From NCBI GenBank assembly GCA_963722255.1, contig CAVRJO010000001.1, positions 256,001 to 320,000 of the forward strand: a stretch of DNA of 64,000 nt, read 5' to 3'. The translations under genes were made by a program, and so were the position numbers. The DNA is from Candidatus Babeliales bacterium. GTDB taxonomy: Bacteria; Babelota; Babeliae; Babelales; JANWKD01. Positions 19,279-39,171 of this stretch are shown here, one piece after another; positions within the stretch are counted from its first letter, which is position 1; every line of letters starts with the position of its first letter. Under the pieces are notes generated by a model. The model saw only the letters and a list, made by a program, of their open reading frames with translations, made no database searches and was not told the origin of the DNA.

Positions 19279-19833
19279 ATGACAAAAAAATTTTCAACAC
19301 TATTCATTTTACTATTTTGCGGATCTTTATTTGGTATGCAAAATAATGATTTTTTCTTAGCAACTAAAAAGAAAAGAAAAAAGAAAGAACCTTTTCTAAC
19401 TTTTTTAGAGCAGAACGTTCAAACAGGCTTATATAAAAAAGAGGAAAAACAAAAAAAGAGTATTTATTACACAAAAAAAGATGCTGATACCAATGTTCAA
19501 ATAGAAACGGTAATTGATGCTTATCAAAAAATTCAAGGCCTCAAAACAATTTCATTGGTAACTACAGATATTCCAACGGATTGCAATCACATAGCTTCCA
19601 TGAAATACTTAATTTCAAACAATATCTGCACAATCTCACTTATACAAACCGATCCAGAATTCCAAAGACAAGGCTTTGGTAGCTTATTGCTTACTGATCT
19701 AGAGCAAGAATTGCGCCAAAGCGGATGCAAAGCGATTTCATTAATCGCTCTTGATAGTGCTGAAGGATTTTATGATAAACATGGTTTTATTACAGAGAAT
19801 GCCTTTGGGCGTAAGACTAAAAAATTAGATTGA
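19279..19833 (+). CDS. Secreted GNAT acetyltransferase with basic NLS-like patch
   Basis: Signal ...LFG|M; KKKRKKK; PEFQRQGFGSLL and AEGFYDKHGF. Confidence 0.85.
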   Translation: MTKKFSTLFILLFCGSLFGMQNNDFFLATKKKRKKKEPFLTFLEQNVQTGLYKKEEKQKKSIYYTKKDADTNVQIETVIDAYQKIQGLKTISLVTTDIPTDCNHIASMKYLISNNICTISLIQTDPEFQRQGFGSLLLTDLEQELRQSGCKAISLIALDSAEGFYDKHGFITENAFGRKTKKLD

Positions 19834-20573: not shown

Positions 20574-21527
20574 TTAATTATTTACCGTATAATTTAAAAT
20601 TGGAATTCGAATTTCAGGTGGTAATATACTTAAATATGAATCTTGGTTGCTAAAATGTTTCCTTGCCAGAATTTCTTTTCGGATCATTTTTTGTATCGCA
20701 GGGCTCTTTGCATGATTCAATAATGATTCTCCAGCATCAGTCATAACTTCAGGATCAGCACCAGCTTTAATAAGCAAATCTACCATCGCAATGCGATTAT
20801 ATTTTACAGCAGCCAATAATGGCGTATCACCAAAGCCATCCTTTGCTTCAATATCCATTTTTAAATCTATAAAAGCTTCAAGCATATAAATGGTTCCGAA
20901 TTTAGCTGCATGATGTAATAAAATTTTATTTTTATGGCTCGGGATTTTAACATCAAAATTATCAAGAATTAAATCAAAAATTTTATTGGTAGTGCCGACC
21001 ATACTACTATTAGTTGGACAAATCGATATTGCTGCGTGACAAGATTTAATTTTTGCGCCATATCCAATTAATAATTGGCAAGTTTCAAAACTACCTTTAT
21101 CGATAGCGTGCCATAATAAATCATTATTAAAAACAATGTCATTAGAACTGATTGCAGTTACGTCGAGAAGCTCTTTTATTTTTCTAGAATCATTAGATTC
21201 AATAAGCTCAGAAATCCTTTCCTGAGAAGGAATAATCTTTTTAGCGATTTGTGCCCTGATTGACATATTGTGACTATTAATTTGTTGCAGGTATTGAACT
21301 TGAGCATATTTATTATATAAAAAACTTGCTAATCCTGAACAAAAAAAGGTTCCAGTAACTATCGATTTCTTAAAAGAATAATCTTTAGTATACAATTGCC
21401 AAACTAATGAGCCAACACCAAGCGCAGTAGCGCCAATACCAACAGTAAAACTAGTTTTGCGGCTCATACAATCTAATTGACAAGCGCTATTCAAAAAAAA
21501 GAGCAAAAACAGTACTATTAATTTCAT
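20574..21527 (-). CDS. Ankyrin-repeat protein with signal peptide, membrane hairpin and C-terminal F-box-like motif
   Basis: GDTPLLAAVKYNRIAMVDLLIKAGAD; C-terminal LSILPPEIRIPILNY. Confidence 0.85.
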   Translation of the reverse strand: MKLIVLFLLFFLNSACQLDCMSRKTSFTVGIGATALGVGSLVWQLYTKDYSFKKSIVTGTFFCSGLASFLYNKYAQVQYLQQINSHNMSIRAQIAKKIIPSQERISELIESNDSRKIKELLDVTAISSNDIVFNNDLLWHAIDKGSFETCQLLIGYGAKIKSCHAAISICPTNSSMVGTTNKIFDLILDNFDVKIPSHKNKILLHHAAKFGTIYMLEAFIDLKMDIEAKDGFGDTPLLAAVKYNRIAMVDLLIKAGADPEVMTDAGESLLNHAKSPAIQKMIRKEILARKHFSNQDSYLSILPPEIRIPILNYTVNN

Positions 21528-21539
21528 AACAATTCTATA

Positions 21540-22475
21540 TTATTTATACGTAGCAAAACTTATAACACGATCTAAAAGCTCTTGTGGCATTGCTTGCGGT
21601 TTTCTATCTCTATACATCAAACTAGTTGGACTTAACGATTCCATAGAAATCATTTTAGCAACAATCAACTCTTTTAACCCTGCATTTATAACTTTATTTA
21701 ATACAGAATCTCCTGATAAAGTTGTTGCATTTAAATCAGCGCCAGCATTAATTAATGTTTTTGCTGCCGTAATATTATTATGTGCTGTAGCAATTAATAA
21801 TGGTGTGTATCCAAAATCATCACGAACTTCAAGATCAAATCCAAAATTAATAAAAGTTTCAACCATATGGGAAGTTCCATGACTAGCAGCATTTAATAAT
21901 AAAGTTTCACTCTTACGCTCTTTAAGCACGGAACGATCAAAACTATCCAATATTAAATCAAAAATATTATCATTAGCCAAAATTGAATTCTCTAAATCTC
22001 GTAAAGTAACTGTCGCTCCATTGTCAATAACCAATTTACAGATATCGAATTCACGCTTCACTATTGAATAATGTAAAATATCTCCGCCAAAAATTTTCTC
22101 ATCAGGACCAATTATACCTGCATCAAGAAGCCGTTTTATTTCATCATAGTTATTAGAAGCTGACACAAGGGCATAAAGAGTTTCTTCATCTACCTTTGCC
22201 TTATTGCTCAATTGATTGTTCTTTGTTGATCTAGGCAAACTTGTTACCTTCGCATAGTTACTATAGATCAAACTAGTTATTCCCGAAGTTATCAAAGTTC
22301 CCGTAACTATCGATTTTTTCAACGAATAATCTTTAGTATACAATTGCCATACTAATGAGCCAACACCAAGCGCAGTAGCGCCAATACCAACCGTAAAACT
22401 AGTTTTGCGGCTCATACAATCTAATTGACAAGCGCTATTCAAAAAAAAGAGCAAAAATAGTAGTTTAAATTTCAT
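21540..22475 (-). CDS. Ankyrin-repeat protein, tandem paralog
   Basis: GYTPLLIATAHNNITAAKTLINAGAD; same N-terminal 60 aa as its neighbour; C-terminal MPQELLDRVISF. Confidence 0.85.
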   Translation of the reverse strand: MKFKLLFLLFFLNSACQLDCMSRKTSFTVGIGATALGVGSLVWQLYTKDYSLKKSIVTGTLITSGITSLIYSNYAKVTSLPRSTKNNQLSNKAKVDEETLYALVSASNNYDEIKRLLDAGIIGPDEKIFGGDILHYSIVKREFDICKLVIDNGATVTLRDLENSILANDNIFDLILDSFDRSVLKERKSETLLLNAASHGTSHMVETFINFGFDLEVRDDFGYTPLLIATAHNNITAAKTLINAGADLNATTLSGDSVLNKVINAGLKELIVAKMISMESLSPTSLMYRDRKPQAMPQELLDRVISFATYK

Positions 22476-27551: not shown

Positions 27552-29394
27552 ATGTGTGGACTTGTTGGTTATATAGGCAATAATTTTAGTAGATCACATA
27601 TTATTAAAGGGCTTAGTCGATTAGAATACCGTGGATATGATTCTGCCGGATTTGCATGTTTAAGCCCTTCTAATAACCATATTATTTACAGCAAAGCTCA
27701 GGGTCATCTTAAAAATCTCATTAAAAGTTTTGATGAAACTCCTATAGACGGTCATATTGGACTAGGGCATACTCGTTGGTCAAGTCATGGTATAGCTTCA
27801 ACGGAAAACGCCCATCCTCACTTTGATTGTCAAAAGAAAATTTCTGTGGCTCATAATGGCATTATAGAAAATTATCACGAGCTTAAGAGTGCAATTATGC
27901 AAAGAAGGACACATTTTCGCATCTCAAACAGATACGGAAGTCATAGCACACCTCCTTGAAGACTTATTAAAAAAAACGACCTCTCTTCACACTGCATTAC
28001 TTGGTTTAACACAAGCTCTACGCGGTGCATATGCCTTAATCTTTATAAGTGAGCTTTTTCCCGACCAAATGATCGTAATACGAAAAGGATCACCGTTATG
28101 CCTTGGAATTGGCATTCACGAGATATTTGTTTCCTCTGATCCCTTAGCATTTGCAGAAAATACTAATAATGCCGTCTATTTACCTGACCAGAGCTTTGCT
28201 ATCCTTAATAAAGATTCTATTGATCTGTATGATTTTTCGGGTACTGCTTTGACCCCTTCTATACAAAAGATCAATGCATACTGGACCAATGTTGATAAAA
28301 TGGGCTATAAGCATTTTATGCTTAAAGAAATTTATGAACAAAAAAGCGCAATAATAAATACTTTAGAACATTTAGATGCAGTCCCTGAGATTTGGCATCA
28401 AATGGGTATTTCAGCCGATACATGCAAAAAAATTGATTCCATTGCTCTCATTGGATGTGGAACATCATGGTACGCTGCAAGAATTGCTCAATTTTATTTT
28501 GAACAACTCTGCTTAATTCCGTCAAAGATTTTGCTTGGGTCAGAATTTAGATACATGCCTTTTTTCCCTGAAAAAAATACCCTCTATATTGCAATCTCAC
28601 AATCAGGAGAAACAGCAGATACCCTTGAAGCAATACGCTTAATCAATTCATTTAATTTACCAACAGTCGGATTAACTAATGTTAACTCGAGCACACTTGT
28701 GCGTGAAGCCCAGGGCTTTGTGCTTATGAATGCAGGACCTGAGATTGCAGTTGCCTCTACAAAAGCATTTTCTTGTCAACTTGCTACCCTATTTTGGCTT
28801 GCAAACAAAATAGCTTTAGAAAAAAATCTTATTAAGCAATCCCATATGGAACAGGCACGTAATGATATATTGTTGGCTGCCGAAACTTTGGAAAATACTA
28901 TCTCAACCTATCAAGATAGTATAGTAGCTAAGCTTGCTCCCTTTTATGCGCAGTTTAAAAAATTTATCTTTTTAGGTAGAAATATCAGTTATCCTTTTGC
29001 AATGGAAGCAGCGTTAAAACTTAAAGAGATTGCTTACGTTTTTGCGCAGTGTTATCCGGCTGGAGAACTTAAACATGGCCCTATTGCCCTTATTGATAGC
29101 GAAACTCCCATCTTAATTTTTTCAACGCTTGATCCATTAATTTATCAAAAATTGGTGTCAAATGCTCAAGAGGTTAAAGCGCGTAATGGACATCTAACTA
29201 TTTTTGCATTTGAAGGGCAACAAGAGCTCATTGAACTCGCTGATATAATTTTTATTATCCCGACCGTGAATCCATTGCTCGCTCCACTTGCAATGACGGG
29301 ATTAATGCAATTTTTGATGTATCAAATTGCTGATAGCCTTGGATGCCACATTGATAAACCAAGAAATCTTGCAAAATCTGTTACGATAGAATAA
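27552..29394 (+). CDS. glmS: Glutamine--fructose-6-phosphate transaminase; frameshift near 27886
   Basis: MCGLVG, LEYRGYDSAG, GHTRW, SQSGET, ELKHGP, PRNLAKSVT. Confidence 0.95.
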
Positions 29395-29620
29395 ACAAGT
29401 TGCTTTACTCTATACTGCGCACTAGCCATATTTTATAACAAAAAATAGTACAATGTGCATCACAAACCATGAAAAATGGTATATAATAGTCACATGTTTA
29501 TATAAAGAGCGGGTTTACTTTAACATCTAGTTCTTTGTATACTATTCATTAATTGCTAGTATGCATATAAAAAAAACAAAAAAAACAAAAAAAATTAAAA
29601 AATCTCTGGAGCATAGAGAA

Positions 29621-30973
29621 ATGGCAATCTTTCGATATTCTATAAAAATGATCCTTCTTGCCGTACTCTATCTTTTTGTAGTAAGAATAACAGCGCGAGA
29701 AAATTGTTTTCAATTGGACAATAGTTCTTCAAATGAATTTTGGATTACGGTCGTAGTCCATGGAATTGTAAATATAAAACCGCATCTTTCGGTTTCAAAC
29801 TTAATTCGTTTCATGCGCGATCAAATTACAGATTCAATTTATGCACGAGCAGTAGAGATAATGAGAGTAGATCCCTTTTTTTTCCAATATTCTGCTATGC
29901 AAGGCCTTGGCTTAGAAAAAATAGACCCAACCCTAAAACGAGAAGGTTATGCCTCGGGTGCATTTGCCTTGAGTTATACTAGTTTTGACCAATTAAATAA
30001 TCAAAATAATGAAAAGAATATCTTTTATACCTTTGGCTGGTCCGGATTACTCAGCACTCAAATACGATATTATGAAGCTGAAATTTTTTATCGTGCACTC
30101 GAAAATGAGATTAACTATTATAGAGCGCAAGGACTTAATCCAAAAGTTAGAATTATTGGCTATAGCCATGGAGGCTATATTGCTCTTAATTTAGGAGCAG
30201 TATTTAATAATAAAAAGAAAGACGCAGTTGATTGGTGTGTCGATGAACTGATTCTCCTTGGTGTCCCTGTCATTTCAGATACCGATTTTTTAGTTGATAG
30301 TTTGCTCTTTAAGGAAGTATATCATGTTTATTCGCCCGGCGATCGCGTTCAAGTTGTTGATTGTCTTGCAACTAATAGATTTTTTTCTCACAGAATATTT
30401 AGATCACGGCTTGGGTTTTTACTTCCACAAAAATTGAAACAGATTCAATTCCGAGTAAAAAGAGTAGCAAAAACAAGAGCAGCAAAGCACCATTGTAAAC
30501 ATCATGCGCAAGAATATCCAGCAAAGTTACTCCGCAATGCCGATCCTGGGCATACAGAACTTTGGTCTTTTGGATGGTCCATGGGCTACCGATCCCATTT
30601 ACCTCTTTATCCTTTTCCTGCAGGAGTATATCTTGGTTATCTTATAAATAGTATAAAAAATAATTACATTGGCAACAATCATCTTATTATGGATATTAGA
30701 CCTTTTCAAGAAAAAATATGTATCAGTGCCTATGATTCATCATTCAACATGGTTGTTCCTTTTCCATCAAAGCAATTTCATGAAGAAGTTGTTCAGCAAC
30801 TTAATCCATATGTTCCAATCAATTGTTCTCGAGAGGCATATAAACAAAGATCTGACCATGCTTTAGAAATTGCTTATGAACAAAAGAAGGATGAATGGCG
30901 TCGAAGGCGTCGATGCCTGCCACGATTTAAGAAAAAATTTATGGCACAGAAGACACAAAAAGTAGAATGTTAA
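29621..30973 (+). CDS. Secreted alpha/beta-hydrolase-fold protein
   Basis: VVVHG oxyanion segment and IGYSHGG nucleophile elbow; hydrophobic N-terminus; basic C-terminus. Confidence 0.7.
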   Translation: MAIFRYSIKMILLAVLYLFVVRITARENCFQLDNSSSNEFWITVVVHGIVNIKPHLSVSNLIRFMRDQITDSIYARAVEIMRVDPFFFQYSAMQGLGLEKIDPTLKREGYASGAFALSYTSFDQLNNQNNEKNIFYTFGWSGLLSTQIRYYEAEIFYRALENEINYYRAQGLNPKVRIIGYSHGGYIALNLGAVFNNKKKDAVDWCVDELILLGVPVISDTDFLVDSLLFKEVYHVYSPGDRVQVVDCLATNRFFSHRIFRSRLGFLLPQKLKQIQFRVKRVAKTRAAKHHCKHHAQEYPAKLLRNADPGHTELWSFGWSMGYRSHLPLYPFPAGVYLGYLINSIKNNYIGNNHLIMDIRPFQEKICISAYDSSFNMVVPFPSKQFHEEVVQQLNPYVPINCSREAYKQRSDHALEIAYEQKKDEWRRRRRCLPRFKKKFMAQKTQKVEC

Positions 30974-31050: not shown

Positions 31051-32730
31051 TTGAGTAAAAAAATGAAAAAATTACCTATTGGCACAAGTGATTTTAAAAA
31101 ACTTATTAATGAAGATTATTACTACGTTGATAAAACTCTCTTCATCAAAGAACTTATTGAGAGTTCAGGTGAAGTACTCTTAATTCCTCGACCTCGACGA
31201 TTTGGCAAAACGCTTAATCTCTCAATGTTACGCTATTTTTTTGAAAAAACAGAAACTGATACGAGCATTCTTTTTGCACATACCGAAATTTGGAAACATG
31301 AAGAGTATAAAAAGCTGCAAGGAAAAAACCCTGTTATATTTCTCACCTTTAAAGATATAAAAGAATCCGATTGGCATAAAGCTTATGAAAGTTTTAGAAT
31401 AATTATTGCAAAAGAGTTCAAGCGACATGAATCAGCACTCCTGCCAACGTTATCTGATTTTCATCGAAAAACTTATCAAGCAATTTTGGAACAAAATGCA
31501 AGTGAAGTTGTTTATACTCAAAGTTTATCGTTATTAACAGAGCTTTTGTATAATCATTACCAGAAAAAGGTTATCGTATTACTTGATGAATACGATGCTC
31601 CAATACATGCCGGATATAATAATGGATATTATAATGAGGCTACGCAATTTATGCGTTCGCTGTTAACCGCAGTTCTAAAAGATAATAGTTATCTTGAACG
31701 CGGGGTTTTAACAGGGATCTTGAGAACTGCAAAAGAAGGTATTTTTTCAGGACTTAATAATCTTAAAGTTTGTTCGCTTCTTGATAATGCCTTTCAAGAT
31801 AAATTTGGTTTTTCGCAATTTGAAGTAGAACAATTTTTGAAAGACTATAACCATTTAAATAGTTTGGATGATGTGCAACAGTGGTATAACGGTTACACCA
31901 TTGGCACCACGACCATTTACAACCCCTGGTCATTATTAATGTACAGCGACAATCAATGGAGATTGCAACCATATTGGGTTAATACCAGCGATAATCAGAT
32001 AATAAAAAAATTAGTTACTCTTTCGGATTCTGAAGTCAAAGCAGATTTAGAGCTTCTCTTGTCCGGTGCTACCGTTACCAAGATAGTTGATGAGGCAATT
32101 ATTTTCCCAGGAATAGAAGATAATGCACAGGCTGTATGGAGTCTTTTATTATTTAGCGGATATTTAACCTATACTTCTTGTAAACTTGAAAGAGGAAAAT
32201 CATATTGTAATTTAACTATACCTAATGAAGAAGTTAAAATTCTTTACGAGACCTTTATTCAAGAAATCATCGAAAGTATGTTAACAAAAACCAAATTTAA
32301 GAGCTTCTTAACTGCAATAATCTCAGGTGACATAGAAACTTTCTCCCTCTTATTGCAGGAGTTCATAGTTAACAGTATGAGTTTTTACGATTTACCAAAT
32401 GATGAACCGGAAAAAAGTTACCATTTATTTGTTCTAGGTTTATTGGTGTTACTTGCAGATACCTACCAGATAAAATCTAATCGCGAAAGCGGTTATGGCC
32501 GCTATGATATCATGCTAATACCTCATGATAAAAACAAACTGGCCACAATCATAGAATTTAAAAAAGTATCAACCGAATCATTAGAAAAAACTGCGCAAAA
32601 TGCATTAGAACAAATTACTGCGAAGCAGTATGCACAAGAATTAAAAGCTTTAGGAATTACGCATATTAAAGCGCTTGGTATTGCTTTTCAAGGGAAAAAA
32701 GTTCTGGTTCTTGAGCAGGATTTAGCTTAA
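31051..32730 (+). CDS. AAA-ATPase-like protein with PD-(D/E)XK nuclease domain
   Basis: YYVDKT, RPRRFGKT, LDEYD, WYNGY, YNPWS, SNRESGYGRYDI, IEFKK. Confidence 0.92.
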   Translation: MSKKMKKLPIGTSDFKKLINEDYYYVDKTLFIKELIESSGEVLLIPRPRRFGKTLNLSMLRYFFEKTETDTSILFAHTEIWKHEEYKKLQGKNPVIFLTFKDIKESDWHKAYESFRIIIAKEFKRHESALLPTLSDFHRKTYQAILEQNASEVVYTQSLSLLTELLYNHYQKKVIVLLDEYDAPIHAGYNNGYYNEATQFMRSLLTAVLKDNSYLERGVLTGILRTAKEGIFSGLNNLKVCSLLDNAFQDKFGFSQFEVEQFLKDYNHLNSLDDVQQWYNGYTIGTTTIYNPWSLLMYSDNQWRLQPYWVNTSDNQIIKKLVTLSDSEVKADLELLLSGATVTKIVDEAIIFPGIEDNAQAVWSLLLFSGYLTYTSCKLERGKSYCNLTIPNEEVKILYETFIQEIIESMLTKTKFKSFLTAIISGDIETFSLLLQEFIVNSMSFYDLPNDEPEKSYHLFVLGLLVLLADTYQIKSNRESGYGRYDIMLIPHDKNKLATIIEFKKVSTESLEKTAQNALEQITAKQYAQELKALGITHIKALGIAFQGKKVLVLEQDLA

Positions 32731-32914
32731 ATTTTGATAAGACACGAAAATTACCCTCTATCACTACTCGTGTTTTTAATGAGAAAAAAATAGTATTTTT
32801 TACCCCACTTTAATCTCTTTGCTTAAAATCAATAATAATTTCTAATTGACATTTATATTATGCCTGATATACTTATAATAAAAGGTTAATTAAGAAAAAA
32901 AATGGAGTTTATGT

Positions 32915-33685
32915 ATGAAGAAATTATTACAAAGATTTGTTATGATTTTCATAGCAATAATTGCTATAAATCATTCATTACAAGCAATGAATCAAGAAAA
33001 GATCGTCCAAGACGCTCCTTTTAGCATGTATCAAATGCCTAAAAAAATTGCTAAAGGCTATACACAAGCCTACACAACTGCTTTTTCCTTAACATTTATT
33101 CATGAATTAGGTCACTGGATTGCAAATAAAGCAATCTTGGGCAGAAAAGGAATTATTTTTGTAAATCCTTTCCAAATTTTGCCTAGGGAGGGCGGTTTGA
33201 TGACGTATAAGACCCCTCTTAGTAAGTTTTTTGAAGAATATAAAAAATCTAATAACTTTACACAAGCACTCAAACAGTTTGCACAATTGAACGTATTTAA
33301 ACCAGGAATTGGCTATGGTCTTATGTGTTTAGCCGGTCCGTTATTTGGAGTTTTAGGTTCCCTTGGATTTTTAAAAGGCAGCACAATATACACTGAATAT
33401 AAACGTAATGGAAAATTGTTTGGTCCAGCAGTTGACTATGGCATGAAACAACCACTTTTTAACAAAGATCAAAACCTTATTTCACAAATAATACCATCTA
33501 TGGCTATAATACAGAATGTCATGAATTTATCACCTGCATCAACCCTTGATGGCGAAAAAGCTTTACGAGGATTTAATATAAAACTTGGTGAACTTACACG
33601 TGCTAAAATAACCTTAGCGATTGCTTCAACAAATATTGGTCTGGCTGGATTACTAGGCTATTTGATCTATAAAGCAAACAGCTAA
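32915..33685 (+). CDS. Site-2-protease/M50-like zinc metallopeptidase with signal peptide
   Basis: HELGH, LAGP, NLSPASTLDG; signal ...LQA|MNQ. Confidence 0.7.
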   Translation: MKKLLQRFVMIFIAIIAINHSLQAMNQEKIVQDAPFSMYQMPKKIAKGYTQAYTTAFSLTFIHELGHWIANKAILGRKGIIFVNPFQILPREGGLMTYKTPLSKFFEEYKKSNNFTQALKQFAQLNVFKPGIGYGLMCLAGPLFGVLGSLGFLKGSTIYTEYKRNGKLFGPAVDYGMKQPLFNKDQNLISQIIPSMAIIQNVMNLSPASTLDGEKALRGFNIKLGELTRAKITLAIASTNIGLAGLLGYLIYKANS

Positions 33686-33745
33686 AAATTTATCATAGTT
33701 TAAATCAAAAAAATGGAGATTATTAAAAAAATAACTGTTTAAACA

Positions 33746-33780
33746 ATAACCCGTGTTCCAATCTCCTTTCACGGGTTATT
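33746..33780. terminator. Hairpin, putative terminator
   Basis: AATAACCCGTG...CACGGGTTATT 11-bp stem. Confidence 0.5.
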
Positions 33781-33951
33781 CCAAATCGGGCAATAACTAT
33801 TGTTTAAAATCTATAATCGAAATAAACAATTAGCTCGCTTTAATCAATAAAAACCTTGCATAAAATATATAGTTTTTCTATTTGACATTATCTTGTTTTA
33901 TAGTTATTCTATATTTAAAGGAGATTAAGGTAAAAATTTGGAGGTTTATAT

Positions 33952-34428
33952 ATGAAAAAATTATTAGTGTCTATATCAATCTTAACCTTTTGTATTACTC
34001 TTGGCTCAGCAGTTTTTGGAATGTTCCGTCCAAAAAAATCGATACTTTTAAATACTTATGCTATTTCATCTAATTTGAGGACAAATTCAACTATTTCCAA
34101 ACTGCTTACAAGCTCGGTTTATTCAATACGAGTTTCTTCGCCGATTAAAGAATCACCACAAACGCATCGTTCAGCTAAATTGCCGAAACTTGAACCTATT
34201 AAAAAAGATAGAATAACAGCTGCAAAAGAAGATTTGAAGAAGCTTTTAAACACACCAATTGAAAATCTTTACCAACAGCTCGAAATAGTCGTTTCACCTA
34301 CAACCAAGCTGGCCCTTAACTATTTTACGTATCTTACAACAAAAAATGATATTAAGACCTTATATGATCTAGGATTAAAGGTAAGCACTAAATTTAAAGA
34401 ATCGTTAAGAAAATTAAAGATGTTCTAA
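33952..34428 (+). CDS. Secreted basic protein
   Basis: GGAGG RBS; signal ...VFG|MFR. Confidence 0.75.
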   Translation: MKKLLVSISILTFCITLGSAVFGMFRPKKSILLNTYAISSNLRTNSTISKLLTSSVYSIRVSSPIKESPQTHRSAKLPKLEPIKKDRITAAKEDLKKLLNTPIENLYQQLEIVVSPTTKLALNYFTYLTTKNDIKTLYDLGLKVSTKFKESLRKLKMF

Positions 34429-34554
34429 GAATTTCATCTAAAATCAGTAATTATTCGCTTAAAGCCAATATTTTATTGCTATTTTGAATTAATATTTGTT
34501 ACTATTAATATTGGAAATGTATTAGTAAAAAATTATATTATTTCAGGAGACGCT

Positions 34555-34956
34555 ATGAAAAAGTCACTTATCTATTCAGGATTACTGTTTTCACTCTTTG
34601 CTGCATCATTTGAATTGGCAGCAGAAGATCTAAGACCAATCGGAGACCTTGCCTTAGAATTTGTAAAACAAAAAGCATTTCAGGGTATTTTACATGCCAA
34701 AGAAAGAAACAAATATTCAACATTCACAACTGTAAATCAATTTAATCGTGAAAATGAAATTGTACAATCAGCCGCAAAAGACGTTCAATTAGCATCAGCA
34801 TTCATGAAAGATGCAGTTGAAAACCTAAAACATTTTAATGATAGTCAATCAAAAATTGAGTTAAAATATCTTGAACCTATAATAGAAGAAATCGAAAAAT
34901 ATAAAGAAATATTAAATGATCATATATCAAGCAAAAAAATAGGCAAACAAAATTAA
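34555..34956 (+). CDS. Secreted helical hypothetical protein
   Basis: AGGAG RBS; MKKSLIYSGLLFSLFAASFELAA. Confidence 0.75.
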   Translation: MKKSLIYSGLLFSLFAASFELAAEDLRPIGDLALEFVKQKAFQGILHAKERNKYSTFTTVNQFNRENEIVQSAAKDVQLASAFMKDAVENLKHFNDSQSKIELKYLEPIIEEIEKYKEILNDHISSKKIGKQN

Positions 34957-34980
34957 AGATTACATAACTAGAATCTTAAA

Positions 34981-35041
34981 ATGGCAGCTCTTATTTCAAG
35001 AGCTGCCACAACTTTAAAAAGTCATCAATATTCATTTGTTG
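34981..35041. repeat. Direct repeat of 35991..36051 (3' end of rsmA plus terminator hairpin)
   Basis: 58 of 61 bases identical; contains the hairpin TGGCAGCTCTT-ATTTC-AAGAGCTGCCA. Confidence 0.92.
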
Positions 35042-35076
35042 AGCATAAAGTATTAATATTTCAAAGGAGACTTACC

Positions 35077-35976
35077 ATGAAAAAATCTTTTAACTATAGT
35101 ATCAAAAAATGCATTAATTTTAGCACATTTGCTCTTCTCATAGCCAGCTCGGCGAACTTTTTTTATTTAGAATCAAAATGCACCCGCTTCCCATGCCAAA
35201 ATGCCCACCGCTTTGACAACCATGAATTCGTTAAAGGAACTTATCTTTTGGACAGACTCATTTTTACAAAAAATTTCCCTAATAATTTAAAACTACAAGT
35301 AAATGATGGTGGTGATTTTAATTTTCCAATAACAAAAAATAAATTAATCGACAATGTTTTCTATTTTAATAAACAGGGGCATGGTGACTTATATTTACAC
35401 GACAATTCAACAGTTGTGATCAGTGATAATCAAGGCAATAAATTGGTTGTAACACGACGACAAGAAGAACACAGAGGAAATAAGCTCAATTTTCCCGATA
35501 CAATAACCATCTACCTTTTTAACAAAAAGAATTATGAGGCTAACAAAAAAAATTATGGAACAAAAATTGTATTTGATGTTAATAAATTTGAAAACCTTCT
35601 CACGCAAACCACCACTTTTGATAATTTACCTGGAAGGGTAAGAACAGTAGAAAGAGTTGGCGGAAAAGATCCAAGACCTGCGATAGGGAGCATGAAACTC
35701 AAACTATCATTTGACCCAAGCTATAATAATATCGACTTAGAAATAGCATTTGAAAACCGTTTTGATAACAAGATTGAAGTAAAAATAGAAAGCCATGAAA
35801 ACCCCCTTATCGAAGCCACGTCAAGCACCTCTTACAAAAATTATGATATCACAACTTGGGATAAAGATTCTCAAAACAAAATATCTTATTACAATGATTT
35901 ATACAAAAATAACATTATTGTAAAAGAAGCAATGACGCAGGATGATTATAATGCAATAAAATACGTCTTAGAATAG
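35077..35976 (+). CDS. Secreted Asn-rich hypothetical protein
   Basis: AAGGAG RBS before ATG at 35077 (MKKSFNYS...), followed by a hydrophobic core. Confidence 0.75.
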   Translation: MKKSFNYSIKKCINFSTFALLIASSANFFYLESKCTRFPCQNAHRFDNHEFVKGTYLLDRLIFTKNFPNNLKLQVNDGGDFNFPITKNKLIDNVFYFNKQGHGDLYLHDNSTVVISDNQGNKLVVTRRQEEHRGNKLNFPDTITIYLFNKKNYEANKKNYGTKIVFDVNKFENLLTQTTTFDNLPGRVRTVERVGGKDPRPAIGSMKLKLSFDPSYNNIDLEIAFENRFDNKIEVKIESHENPLIEATSSTSYKNYDITTWDKDSQNKISYYNDLYKNNIIVKEAMTQDDYNAIKYVLE

Positions 35977-37860: not shown

Positions 37861-39171
37861 TTAGAAATTTAACTCAACACCCAACATAATCCGATTTGTT
37901 TTAACAGCTCCTTGCGCTGCAAAGAATTTTACAGGAACATCCCATTTAAATGAAACAATTGGAACAGACCAATGACACGACAAAATTTGAGTACAATCAA
38001 AAAAGGCATCTACCGTAACAAACTCTGCAGTCCATTGGGATTTCTTTCTATTTGCTTCTAAATTTACCGGTGGCATCTTTACTGCTCTTTCATCGGTCCA
38101 ATTATCCTTCATATGATGTGCAACTGTATAACCAATTTGAAGGCCAAAACCTTCACGAATATTTTCTAATCGTGCATAAGGTGAAACAATGAAGGTAAAT
38201 CCAGGATCAATACGTGCAAATCCTTGAACAGCACCATACAGTTGTTGTTCACTGACCACCGGAGAACCTTCTATACAAGGCTGTTGTCCTCCGATCACCG
38301 GCATGCGTTCTAATTTAGTTTTTGCAAAGCGTTTATTTACACGAGCATGCATTCCAACCTTCCAATCTTCTTTCAACTCAAACTCCGTGTCTATAGCTGT
38401 ATAAACTCCCCAATGACCATCTCCACCAAAAGGTATTGATGCGGGATTAGTAATTTTTCGAGTTAGTCCTGTTGGAAACATTACACCAACTTTCAAACCT
38501 GCGTCAATACGTCGAAATTTATAGAGATAGTCCCAAATATTGCCAACGCGTAGATAAAAATCAATATCAGAAAACCCTGTAGTATTAAAAACTGCAGCAT
38601 TCAAACCTAATTGTTTATTCATAACCCGACGCAATTCATCGAGCCGTGCTTGATCATCAGGCGAAATATGTAAAAGCGCAATACTCTCTCTACTTAGTTC
38701 AAAAGCATTACGTGAATAAAGATGCATAAAAAAGAATGAACCACCCATCCACAGGTTTCGCCAAATATGCTGATCCCATTGAAATGCAGCACCTTGCGTC
38801 TGAATTTTTCCTTCCATAATCCATAAAATATTTTGTTTTCTAAAGCGTGCTAAAGTAGGAAAAAGATCAAACGGATCAGGCTGCCCGATCGCAACAAGTG
38901 CATCTGCAACTCTGTTTTCATCATATAAGCCAAAAATGTCAAAAATCCCGATGTCATGTTCCTCATCCTCTTCATTAAATGCTTCATTGCCAACCATCAG
39001 CATTCCATCGAAGAATGCCGCTGAAGGACGATCCCAAGTCCTAGAGTAATTACGAGGATATTCCGGGAAAAATCTATTATCTTCTACCATTGAAAATACT
39101 TCTTGAAATAGCAAAACACTTATGAGTGAAACAACTATCCAAAAGCTACGATGATTTTTTTGCCTAAACAT
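37861..39171 (-). CDS. Putative outer-membrane beta-barrel protein
   Basis: Signal ...VFS|M; aromatic/Gly-rich amphipathic strands; ends IMLGVELNF. Confidence 0.6.
   Translation of the reverse strand: MFRQKNHRSFWIVVSLISVLLFQEVFSMVEDNRFFPEYPRNYSRTWDRPSAAFFDGMLMVGNEAFNEEDEEHDIGIFDIFGLYDENRVADALVAIGQPDPFDLFPTLARFRKQNILWIMEGKIQTQGAAFQWDQHIWRNLWMGGSFFFMHLYSRNAFELSRESIALLHISPDDQARLDELRRVMNKQLGLNAAVFNTTGFSDIDFYLRVGNIWDYLYKFRRIDAGLKVGVMFPTGLTRKITNPASIPFGGDGHWGVYTAIDTEFELKEDWKVGMHARVNKRFAKTKLERMPVIGGQQPCIEGSPVVSEQQLYGAVQGFARIDPGFTFIVSPYARLENIREGFGLQIGYTVAHHMKDNWTDERAVKMPPVNLEANRKKSQWTAEFVTVDAFFDCTQILSCHWSVPIVSFKWDVPVKFFAAQGAVKTNRIMLGVELNF

Follow-up and report, generated by a model that had tools for sequence, protein, structure and literature searches.

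A bacterial signal peptide may conceal host addresses in Babeliae, with a small basic orphan protein as a borderline case

Babeliae appear to export proteins whose Sec leader hides a second address. In the arrangement that we consider rather probable for the phylum, cutting of the leader would expose a eukaryote-like Met start, and the host would then read signals placed behind it, including presequences with stop-transfer helices. The initial annotation had proposed such a two-stage address from the product of a single gene at 33952–34428 of the window, i.e., the whole stretch of 64,000 nucleotides that was analyzed (G000:C1:256001–320000, from a source genome, G000, of 1.62 Mb and 34% GC). 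Comparison in other Babeliae families supports the proposal, but the window protein itself does not. It shares the charge pattern of the stronger families and lacks their extra features. The clearer mitochondrial-style addresses found in those families by sequence comparison suggest that proteins are posted into host mitochondria.

Two questions are addressed, namely how Babeliae remodel mitochondria and how a large Sec secretome finds its targets. The remodeling of the host mitochondrion by Chromulinavorax destructans, on which the proposal drew, is correctly cited, but the same paper describes the membranes as intact and the matrix as not invaded (PMC6561590). No mitochondrial effector is named in that part of Deeg et al. 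(PMC6561590).

The Gene and Its Setting

The gene and its parts are listed in Table 1. Sigma-70-like sites number 7 in the region against 5.7 in shuffled sequence, so the promoter match does not rise above the shuffle count. The slot around the gene holds one 559-aa gene and four leader-bearing orphans in G000, and different genes occupy it in three other genomes (G108, G109, and G110).

Table 1. Position and character of the features in and around the orphan gene
Feature	Coordinates	Strand	Remarks
Orphan secreted-protein gene	33952..34428	+	158 aa; mature chain 135 aa, pI 10.1; two homologs only
Sigma-70-like promoter match	33882..33910	+	10/12
Shine-Dalgarno-like GGAGG	33940..33944	+	Upstream of leader ATG
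Predicted Sec/SPase I-type signal peptide, 23 aa	33952..34020	+	KK, hydrophobic core, V-F-G end; home-made heuristic and matrix
+1 Met and 43-residue basic, Ser/Thr-rich, acid-free segment	34021..34149	+	Composition
Conserved core of segment, residues 36–62	34057..34137	+	Identity 18/27 to P0002, 8/27 to P0003
Variable basic linker, residues 67–98	34150..34245	+	24–28% identity
Conserved helical C-terminal domain, no family assigned	34246..34425	+	Model pLDDT about 65–77
Variable slot between conserved Babeliae gene (29561–30973) and ksgA	31051..35976	+	Neighbor comparison

Leaders, cleavage sites, and presequences were all scored with home-made rules. The G000 set comprised 1602 proteins, 656 of which are leader-like by these rules, or 616 once multi-pass membrane proteins are set aside. 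By this heuristic the window protein has the basic n-region, hydrophobic h-region, and small residues at −3 and −1 expected of a signal peptide. A matrix blind to the +1 residue places the putative cleavage site G23|M24 only third (5.4), with sites 14 and 19 scoring 6.7 and 5.8. Cleavage at G23|M24 is nonetheless supported by the genome-wide pattern of Met at +1 and by the two homologs: P0003 has an equivalent leader with FG|M at the same place, and the P0002 gene call begins at this Met.

These two homologs, 55% and 35% identical, were all that a full phmmer scan returned. A profile built from them found no further members, and a word-index search matched the window protein only to itself. 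Homologs were likewise missing from the JGI metagenomes and viral contigs searched and, by a weak test, from within longer proteins. Pfam, NCBIfam, and PDB sequence searches gave no useful match to the protein, and the ESM Atlas gave no usable one for it or for the leader region of C1:746509, a protein described below. Fold searches with the C-terminal domain were uninformative (best Z 4.7 and 4.5; Foldseek E of at least 2.9). Two candidate relationships found no support. A weak match in one genome (G168) lies in an unrelated lysine-rich coiled-coil open reading frame. A likeness of the domain to the RNA polymerase alpha-CTD/HhH fold, noticed by eye, scored 3.0 in hhalign against a shuffle mean of 3.5, with 79 of 150 shuffles higher; a second run gave a probability of 0.2, and the fold is missing from the fold-search listings.

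A Basic Protein with an Acid-Poor Start

The composition first reported for the mature N terminus holds: 43 residues without Asp or Glu follow VFG and start with MFR, from Met24 at 34021 to a last acid-free codon ending at 34149. The next codon (34150–34152), with which the initial annotation had closed the segment, is the first Glu. The segment is made up largely of R3, K4, S10, T4, L5, I5, and N3. None of the 10 acids of the mature chain falls within its first 43 residues (P=0.018 for the window protein alone), and the same test gives P=0.06 and 0.14 in the two homologs.

Such a stretch is not rare in this genome. Acid-free runs of at least 43 residues occur in 8 of the 616 leader-bearing G000 proteins against 8.2 in shuffles. 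A charge criterion of at most one Asp or Glu and a net charge of at least +3 over the first 30 mature residues picks out 50 of 612 proteins in G000 against 44.9 in shuffles, and it is not enriched in 177 leader proteins from 24 other Babeliae loci. Taken alone, the acid-free run is weak evidence for a presequence.

The mature window protein is basic along its whole length (net +15, pI 10.1, within the top 14 of 616), and the whole mature chains of the three homologs carry +15, +14, and +11. Shuffled versions of the mature chains satisfy the charge criterion 27–42% of the time. These figures suit a host effector with a target other than the mitochondrion (chromatin, nucleolus, ribosome, or an acidic membrane), in which a conserved binding arm belongs to a generally basic chain and the scarcity of acids at its start simply follows from that. 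The excess of Lys over Arg and the conservation of the arm point the same way, but acids are still excluded from the first 43 residues at the P values given above, and no classical K-K/R-x-K/R signal is seen on reading the arm. This explanation is possible without being favored, and import of the window protein into host mitochondria stands at the same level, a nuclear or cytosolic nucleic-acid target being about as likely as the mitochondrion. The arm probably stays on the protein and contributes to its function rather than being cut off as a tag. If the protein does reach the mitochondrion, its signal would then remain uncleaved, and the small basic chain would act on nucleic acid or membrane of the organelle.

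Methionine at the Mature N Terminus

Met is the commonest +1 residue of G000 leader proteins by the +1-blind matrix (151 of 616, with a Met background of 1.7%), and a tie-break for Met raises the count to 219, leaving about two-thirds of leader proteins without it. Elsewhere in the Babeliae, +1 Met is found at 18 of 24 loci and in 49 of 177 leader proteins. Words resembling ribosome-binding sites lie upstream of the leader in 166 of the 219 and upstream of the +1 Met in 2, which indicates that this Met is exposed by cleavage and is not a second start codon.

The residue after the Met is strongly biased. Position +2 is E in 100 of the 219 chains, N in 27, Q in 23, and D in 10, or 160 in all; these four residues make up 73% at +2 versus 29% at +3 to +10, and small residues at +2 are depleted (19 against 71 expected). 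Presequences had been suggested to give the +1 Met rule its function, and this is not borne out: an acid lies within five residues in 161 of the 219 mature chains that begin with Met and within ten in 189, and only 11 satisfy the charge criterion against 15.6 in shuffles.

The rule falls instead on eukaryote-like cargo. Among proteins with a leader call, +1 Met is found in ankyrin (20 of 29), F-box (2 of 2), and WD40 (4 of 7) proteins, in total 26 of 38 (15 more have no leader call) versus 1 of 6 envelope proteins. One conserved protein in the window (37861–39171, minus strand) does not fit this effector reading: it has a C-terminal Phe like that of outer-membrane barrels and carries +1 Met in several genomes.

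Chains starting M-D/E/N/Q have a NatB-type N terminus, which escapes Met removal (PMC11735805). The same set begins 160 of the 219 Met-starting Babeliae chains. The window protein, which starts M-F, lies outside it and falls under NatC in the available text of that source (PMC11735805). Acetylation of delivered proteins is doubtful, given that NatB is ribosome-bound and acts co-translationally (PMC11735805). More likely, +1 Met gives host-delivered proteins a host-like N terminus.

The Met could alternatively be a bacterial feature that is idle in the host, reflecting a signal peptidase preference, a signal that sorts proteins to the secretin system, or the original start codon of a gene that was captured behind a leader cassette. 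The strong preference for M-E could serve as an export motif, carriers of eukaryotic origin start likewise, and the co-translational action of NatB fits as well. Against this, about two-thirds of leader proteins lack the Met, the residues favored at +2 are exactly those of eukaryotic NatB substrates, with residues that provoke Met removal avoided, and ribosome-binding words are missing at the Met. An idle Met is somewhat unlikely, and a host-like N terminus is preferred.

Mitochondrial-Style Leaders in Other Families

Better candidates than the window protein were found among the mature starts of G000: an ankyrin-like family (A1), a Sel1 protein, two GNATs, an M48 peptidase, and C1:746509. Arg-rich starts number 8 in this genome against 2.5 expected, and the excess consists of five paralogs of A1; because most of the excess comes from this one family, families were tested across genomes instead. 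The A1 family (L002, L003, L004, L006, and L007; contig 2 of G000) comprises six paralogous ankyrin-like proteins specific to G000, with Arg-rich leaders, repeated R-S-F/L-x-S/T sites, and no +1 Met. In a seventh gene (C2:478015), a signal peptide and basic start similar to those of A1 precede a different body.

The most informative family is that of C1:746509, which has matches in 27 of 151 genomes. Among 47 complete open reading frames recovered, 42 have a leader call, and 19 of these satisfy the charge criterion against 3.1 in shuffles (maximum 8 in 1000). The 19 come from 15 genomes in 5 families. Charge-positive starts are found in 13 of 19 Met-starting members versus 6 of 23 others (Fisher p=0.012, with kin not independent).

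Two further features go with the charge. The pattern R-x-F/Y/L-x-S/T, our own wording of the R-3 consensus and the best of three patterns in an earlier test, occurs 8 times in 17 positives (the 19 minus the G000 member and one doubtful call) against 2.4 expected (p=0.003) and once in the 23 others against 2.1; the two other processing-motif patterns were not significant in the positives (p=0.26 and 0.14). A hydrophobic, stop-transfer-like helix is found in 6 of the 17 positives versus 1 of the 23 others. Leaders diverge faster than the domain in three of the four closest pairs, where identity is 0.59, 0.56, and 0.55 in the domain versus 0.21, 0.28, and 0.19 in the first 43 residues; the fourth pair has 0.66 versus 0.56. 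When 37 of the 42 members are placed on a tree, the charge label changes 9 times, against 12.2 when shuffled, which indicates more than one event. The leaders are depleted of acids at P<0.05 in 14 of 18 cases with cargo bodies near neutral, and Arg makes up 0.40 of the basic residues in leaders versus 0.26 in bodies. By home-made criteria, the family would thus carry a presequence followed by a stop-transfer segment.

The cargo of this family (L009:310–2745 and L133–L177) is a widespread uncharacterized C-terminal domain with an H-G...Y...E pattern, and about half of the proteins with the domain have presequence-like leaders. We take the pattern, by eye, to be reminiscent of the motifs of PARP/ART-type ADP-ribosyltransferases, a likeness that is unconfirmed; Pfam and PDB gave no match in support of it.

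Among secreted M48 peptidases, 11 of 29 satisfy the charge criterion against 2.5 in shuffles (maximum 10), several of them close kin, and 21 of 29 have +1 Met. These proteins (L005:360–1409, i.e., G000:C2:615159, and L029–L058) show Met, a short basic stretch, and a hydrophobic helix, and M48 is also the family of mitochondrial Oma1. Two HExxH motifs occur in the G000 protein, which is internally repeated, and the family is expanded in another genome (G109), with 7 matches. The Sel1/TPR protein (L008:433–1233, G000:C1:175632) has a leader, Met, a long basic acid-poor segment, and a hydrophobic helix. The GNAT family occurs in 2 of 151 genomes, too few relatives for a presequence comparison. 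Mitochondrial carrier (Mito_carr) proteins are found in 25 of 151 genomes and are absent from G000. All 15 examined homologs from other Babeliae genomes (L118–L132) have a Sec-type leader, with +1 Met in 5 by automatic call and in a few more by eye.

Presequence-like leaders might instead be disordered basic linkers before a membrane anchor, with the carriers acting in the bacterial inner membrane. Leader cleavage would put the carrier N terminus in the periplasm, giving the same topology as in mitochondria, and M48 peptidases are membrane enzymes in bacteria as well. Babela carriers are also listed among import transporters (PMC4378268). Against linkers stand the motif excess and helix association, confined to the basic C1:746509 members, and the contrast between acid-depleted, Arg-richer leaders and near-neutral bodies. 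Host addresses remain the preferred reading for these families, and the linker explanation is unlikely.

The Window Protein Compared with Presequences

Measured against these families, the claim that the window segment is a matrix presequence is borderline: charge and lack of acids fit, but the pattern of conservation does not, and amphipathicity and the processing site give no clear support. The first 30 residues carry net +5 in all three homologs, with 0, 0, and 1 acids, and all three begin M-F/G-R. A net charge of +3 to +6 is described for presequences (PMC10652799).

The basic residues are not mostly Arg (R/K counts in the first 43 of 3/4, 3/3, and 2/6), although the best presequence candidates of the phylum likewise reach only 0.40 Arg. 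Over the first 18 residues, the three homologs have low hydrophobic moments of 4.0, 4.4, and 0.8, and the best 18-residue amphipathic window (moment 8.3 in the window protein) is not above shuffles (p=0.23, with p=0.52 and 0.83 in the homologs). AlphaFold models of the arm have a pLDDT under 50, and low-confidence models predict a short helix in the core of the segment, where a phi-x-x-phi-phi match lies at the same position in all three homologs. Neither the R-x-F/Y/L-x-S/T site nor a stop-transfer helix was found in the window protein; an R-2-type R-V-S(-S) lies near the segment end in two of the three homologs, P0003 being without the Arg.

Conservation differs as well. Presequences are described as lacking sequence conservation, and some stay uncleaved (PMC10652799). 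In the three homolog pairs, identity in the segment versus the C-terminal domain is 27/43 versus 38/60, 12/38 versus 23/60, and 12/38 versus 27/60 (63% versus 63%, 32% versus 38%, and 32% versus 45%). The segment is thus unlike a disposable presequence, since it is conserved as well as the folded domain.

A composition score trained on the 17 C1:746509-family positives, partly circular in that these were chosen by charge, ranks the window protein 13 of 612, within the range of the positives, and its homologs 31 and 38. Without D, E, K, and R in the score, the window protein drops to rank 149 of 612. A chloroplast-transit reading of the Ser/Thr-rich arm was given little weight, the described hosts being heterotrophic protists.

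The window protein might also stay in the bacterium, binding acidic polymers in the periplasm or at the surface. By itself, a Sec leader takes a protein no farther than the periplasm, searches of the window protein showed no domain of host type, and one envelope-like protein has +1 Met as well. Set against this are the concentration of +1 Met on eukaryote-like cargo (26 of 38 versus 1 of 6) and the status of the gene as an orphan, located where gene content varies and missing from the other 260 of the 261 phylum genomes searched, as effectors tend to be; residence in the bacterium is improbable. Least probable of all is the strict reading, a cleaved canonical matrix presequence with mitochondrial targeting as the purpose of the +1 Met rule, for which the M-F-R start, the acid-free 43 residues, the charge, and the R-V-S-S of two homologs speak, but which is contradicted by a segment as conserved as its domain where the C1:746509 leaders diverge fast, by the low hydrophobic moment, by the missing Arg of P0003, and by an acid within ten residues in 189 of the 219 Met-starting chains.

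Proposed Route

The best explanation of the material as a whole is probably that of a host-like Met start and host addresses, some of them mitochondrial. Sequence evidence points to translation from the leader ATG. Sec export with cleavage just before the Met would follow, and the chain would probably leave through a secretin system of the type II or type IV pilus kind or in vesicles. Once released, it would start like a host translation product, mostly M-E/D/N/Q, and host sorting would act on the new N terminus, most strongly indicated for the C1:746509 family. A minority of families would carry a mitochondrial presequence as the address behind the Met, often with a stop-transfer-like helix after it. 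The window protein would be one more Met-initiated, host-delivered product, a short and strongly basic chain in which a conserved basic, Ser/Thr-rich arm is joined to a small helical domain. Sequences, counts, and conservation are what we observe; from them we infer the cleavage site, passage into the host cytosol, any import, and any activity.

G000 encodes two secretins and two T2SSE/PilB-type ATPases. One difficulty for the proposed route is that type II substrates fold in the periplasm whereas TOM import requires unfolding. Pagnier et al. name a type II system as the sole secretion system of Babela (PMC4378268). Vesicle budding was seen in Chromulinavorax by Deeg et al., who give its leader-bearing share as 44% (PMC6561590).

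The two-stage cargo would include C1:746509-type enzymes, M48 peptidases, acetyltransferases, Sel1/ankyrin proteins, and carriers installed in the host mitochondrion, and installed bacterial enzymes and carriers could explain the mitochondrial remodeling by Chromulinavorax. Stripping leaders before localization prediction would sort the secretome by address and yields a short list of candidate mitochondrial effectors. The gain for the window gene alone is small.

Comparison with Known Systems

The nearest likeness is to TIM23 presequences, including the bipartite type with a stop-transfer segment (PMC7723863, PMC10652799). Common to both are an N-terminal position, basic and acid-poor composition, a length of 15–60 residues, and a net charge of +3 to +6, and other Babeliae families match the R-3-like sites and hydrophobic helix as well. 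The Babeliae version differs in sitting behind a bacterial leader. The window protein differs further: Arg does not dominate its basic residues, its amphipathicity is unclear, and its sequence is conserved.

Mitochondria-targeted bacterial effectors as such are already known; the difference here would be a Sec leader hiding the address. EPEC EspF and Map and Anaplasma Ats-1 are effectors with N-terminal mitochondrial signals. So are the Coxiella Mce proteins, which have mitochondrial signals (PMC7950127). All likewise use host TOM/TIM import but are injected by type III or IV systems, while in Babeliae signal peptidase would uncover the address and re-create a Met start in front of it. If true, pathogens would exploit TOM/TIM import not only after injection by type III or IV systems but also after export by Sec and type II. 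Legionella LncP is a bacterial carrier of the mitochondrial family that reaches the host inner membrane (PMC3252375), as might the carriers found in 25 of 151 Babeliae genomes. LncP travels by Dot/Icm type IV secretion and TIM22 (PMC3252375), in contrast to the Sec-type leaders on all 15 Babeliae carriers examined, and it is unrelated to the window protein.

Two serial addresses with a constrained +1 residue, as proposed for Babeliae, are also found in complex plastids, whose bipartite leaders join a signal peptide to a transit peptide with a conserved aromatic residue at +1. There, one eukaryotic cell reads both halves, whereas in Babeliae the bacterium would read the first and the host the second. 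In the literature searched, secretome supplements and subscription reviews apart, no paper on hidden presequences or a Met rule came up for Babeliae together with mitochondria, signal peptides, targeting, or carriers, nor for Sec effectors with mitochondrial signals or +1 Met with N-degrons.

Other Genes in the Window

The glmS-like region at 27552–29394 of the window and the rpoA locus (L084) are broken into several split frames in G000, and another genome (G108) has one 612-aa glmS-like frame. The breaks are probably assembly indels, and the ends of G000 open reading frames need caution. Two tandem ankyrin genes (20574–22475, minus strand) have nearly identical leaders. The window also holds one of three GNAT paralogs (19279–19833, plus strand; with L010), which have different segments behind the +1 Met. 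The window copy has a cluster of Lys and Arg that resembles a nuclear signal, and the other two have a basic stretch with a hydrophobic helix. These differing segments suggest exchangeable host addresses.
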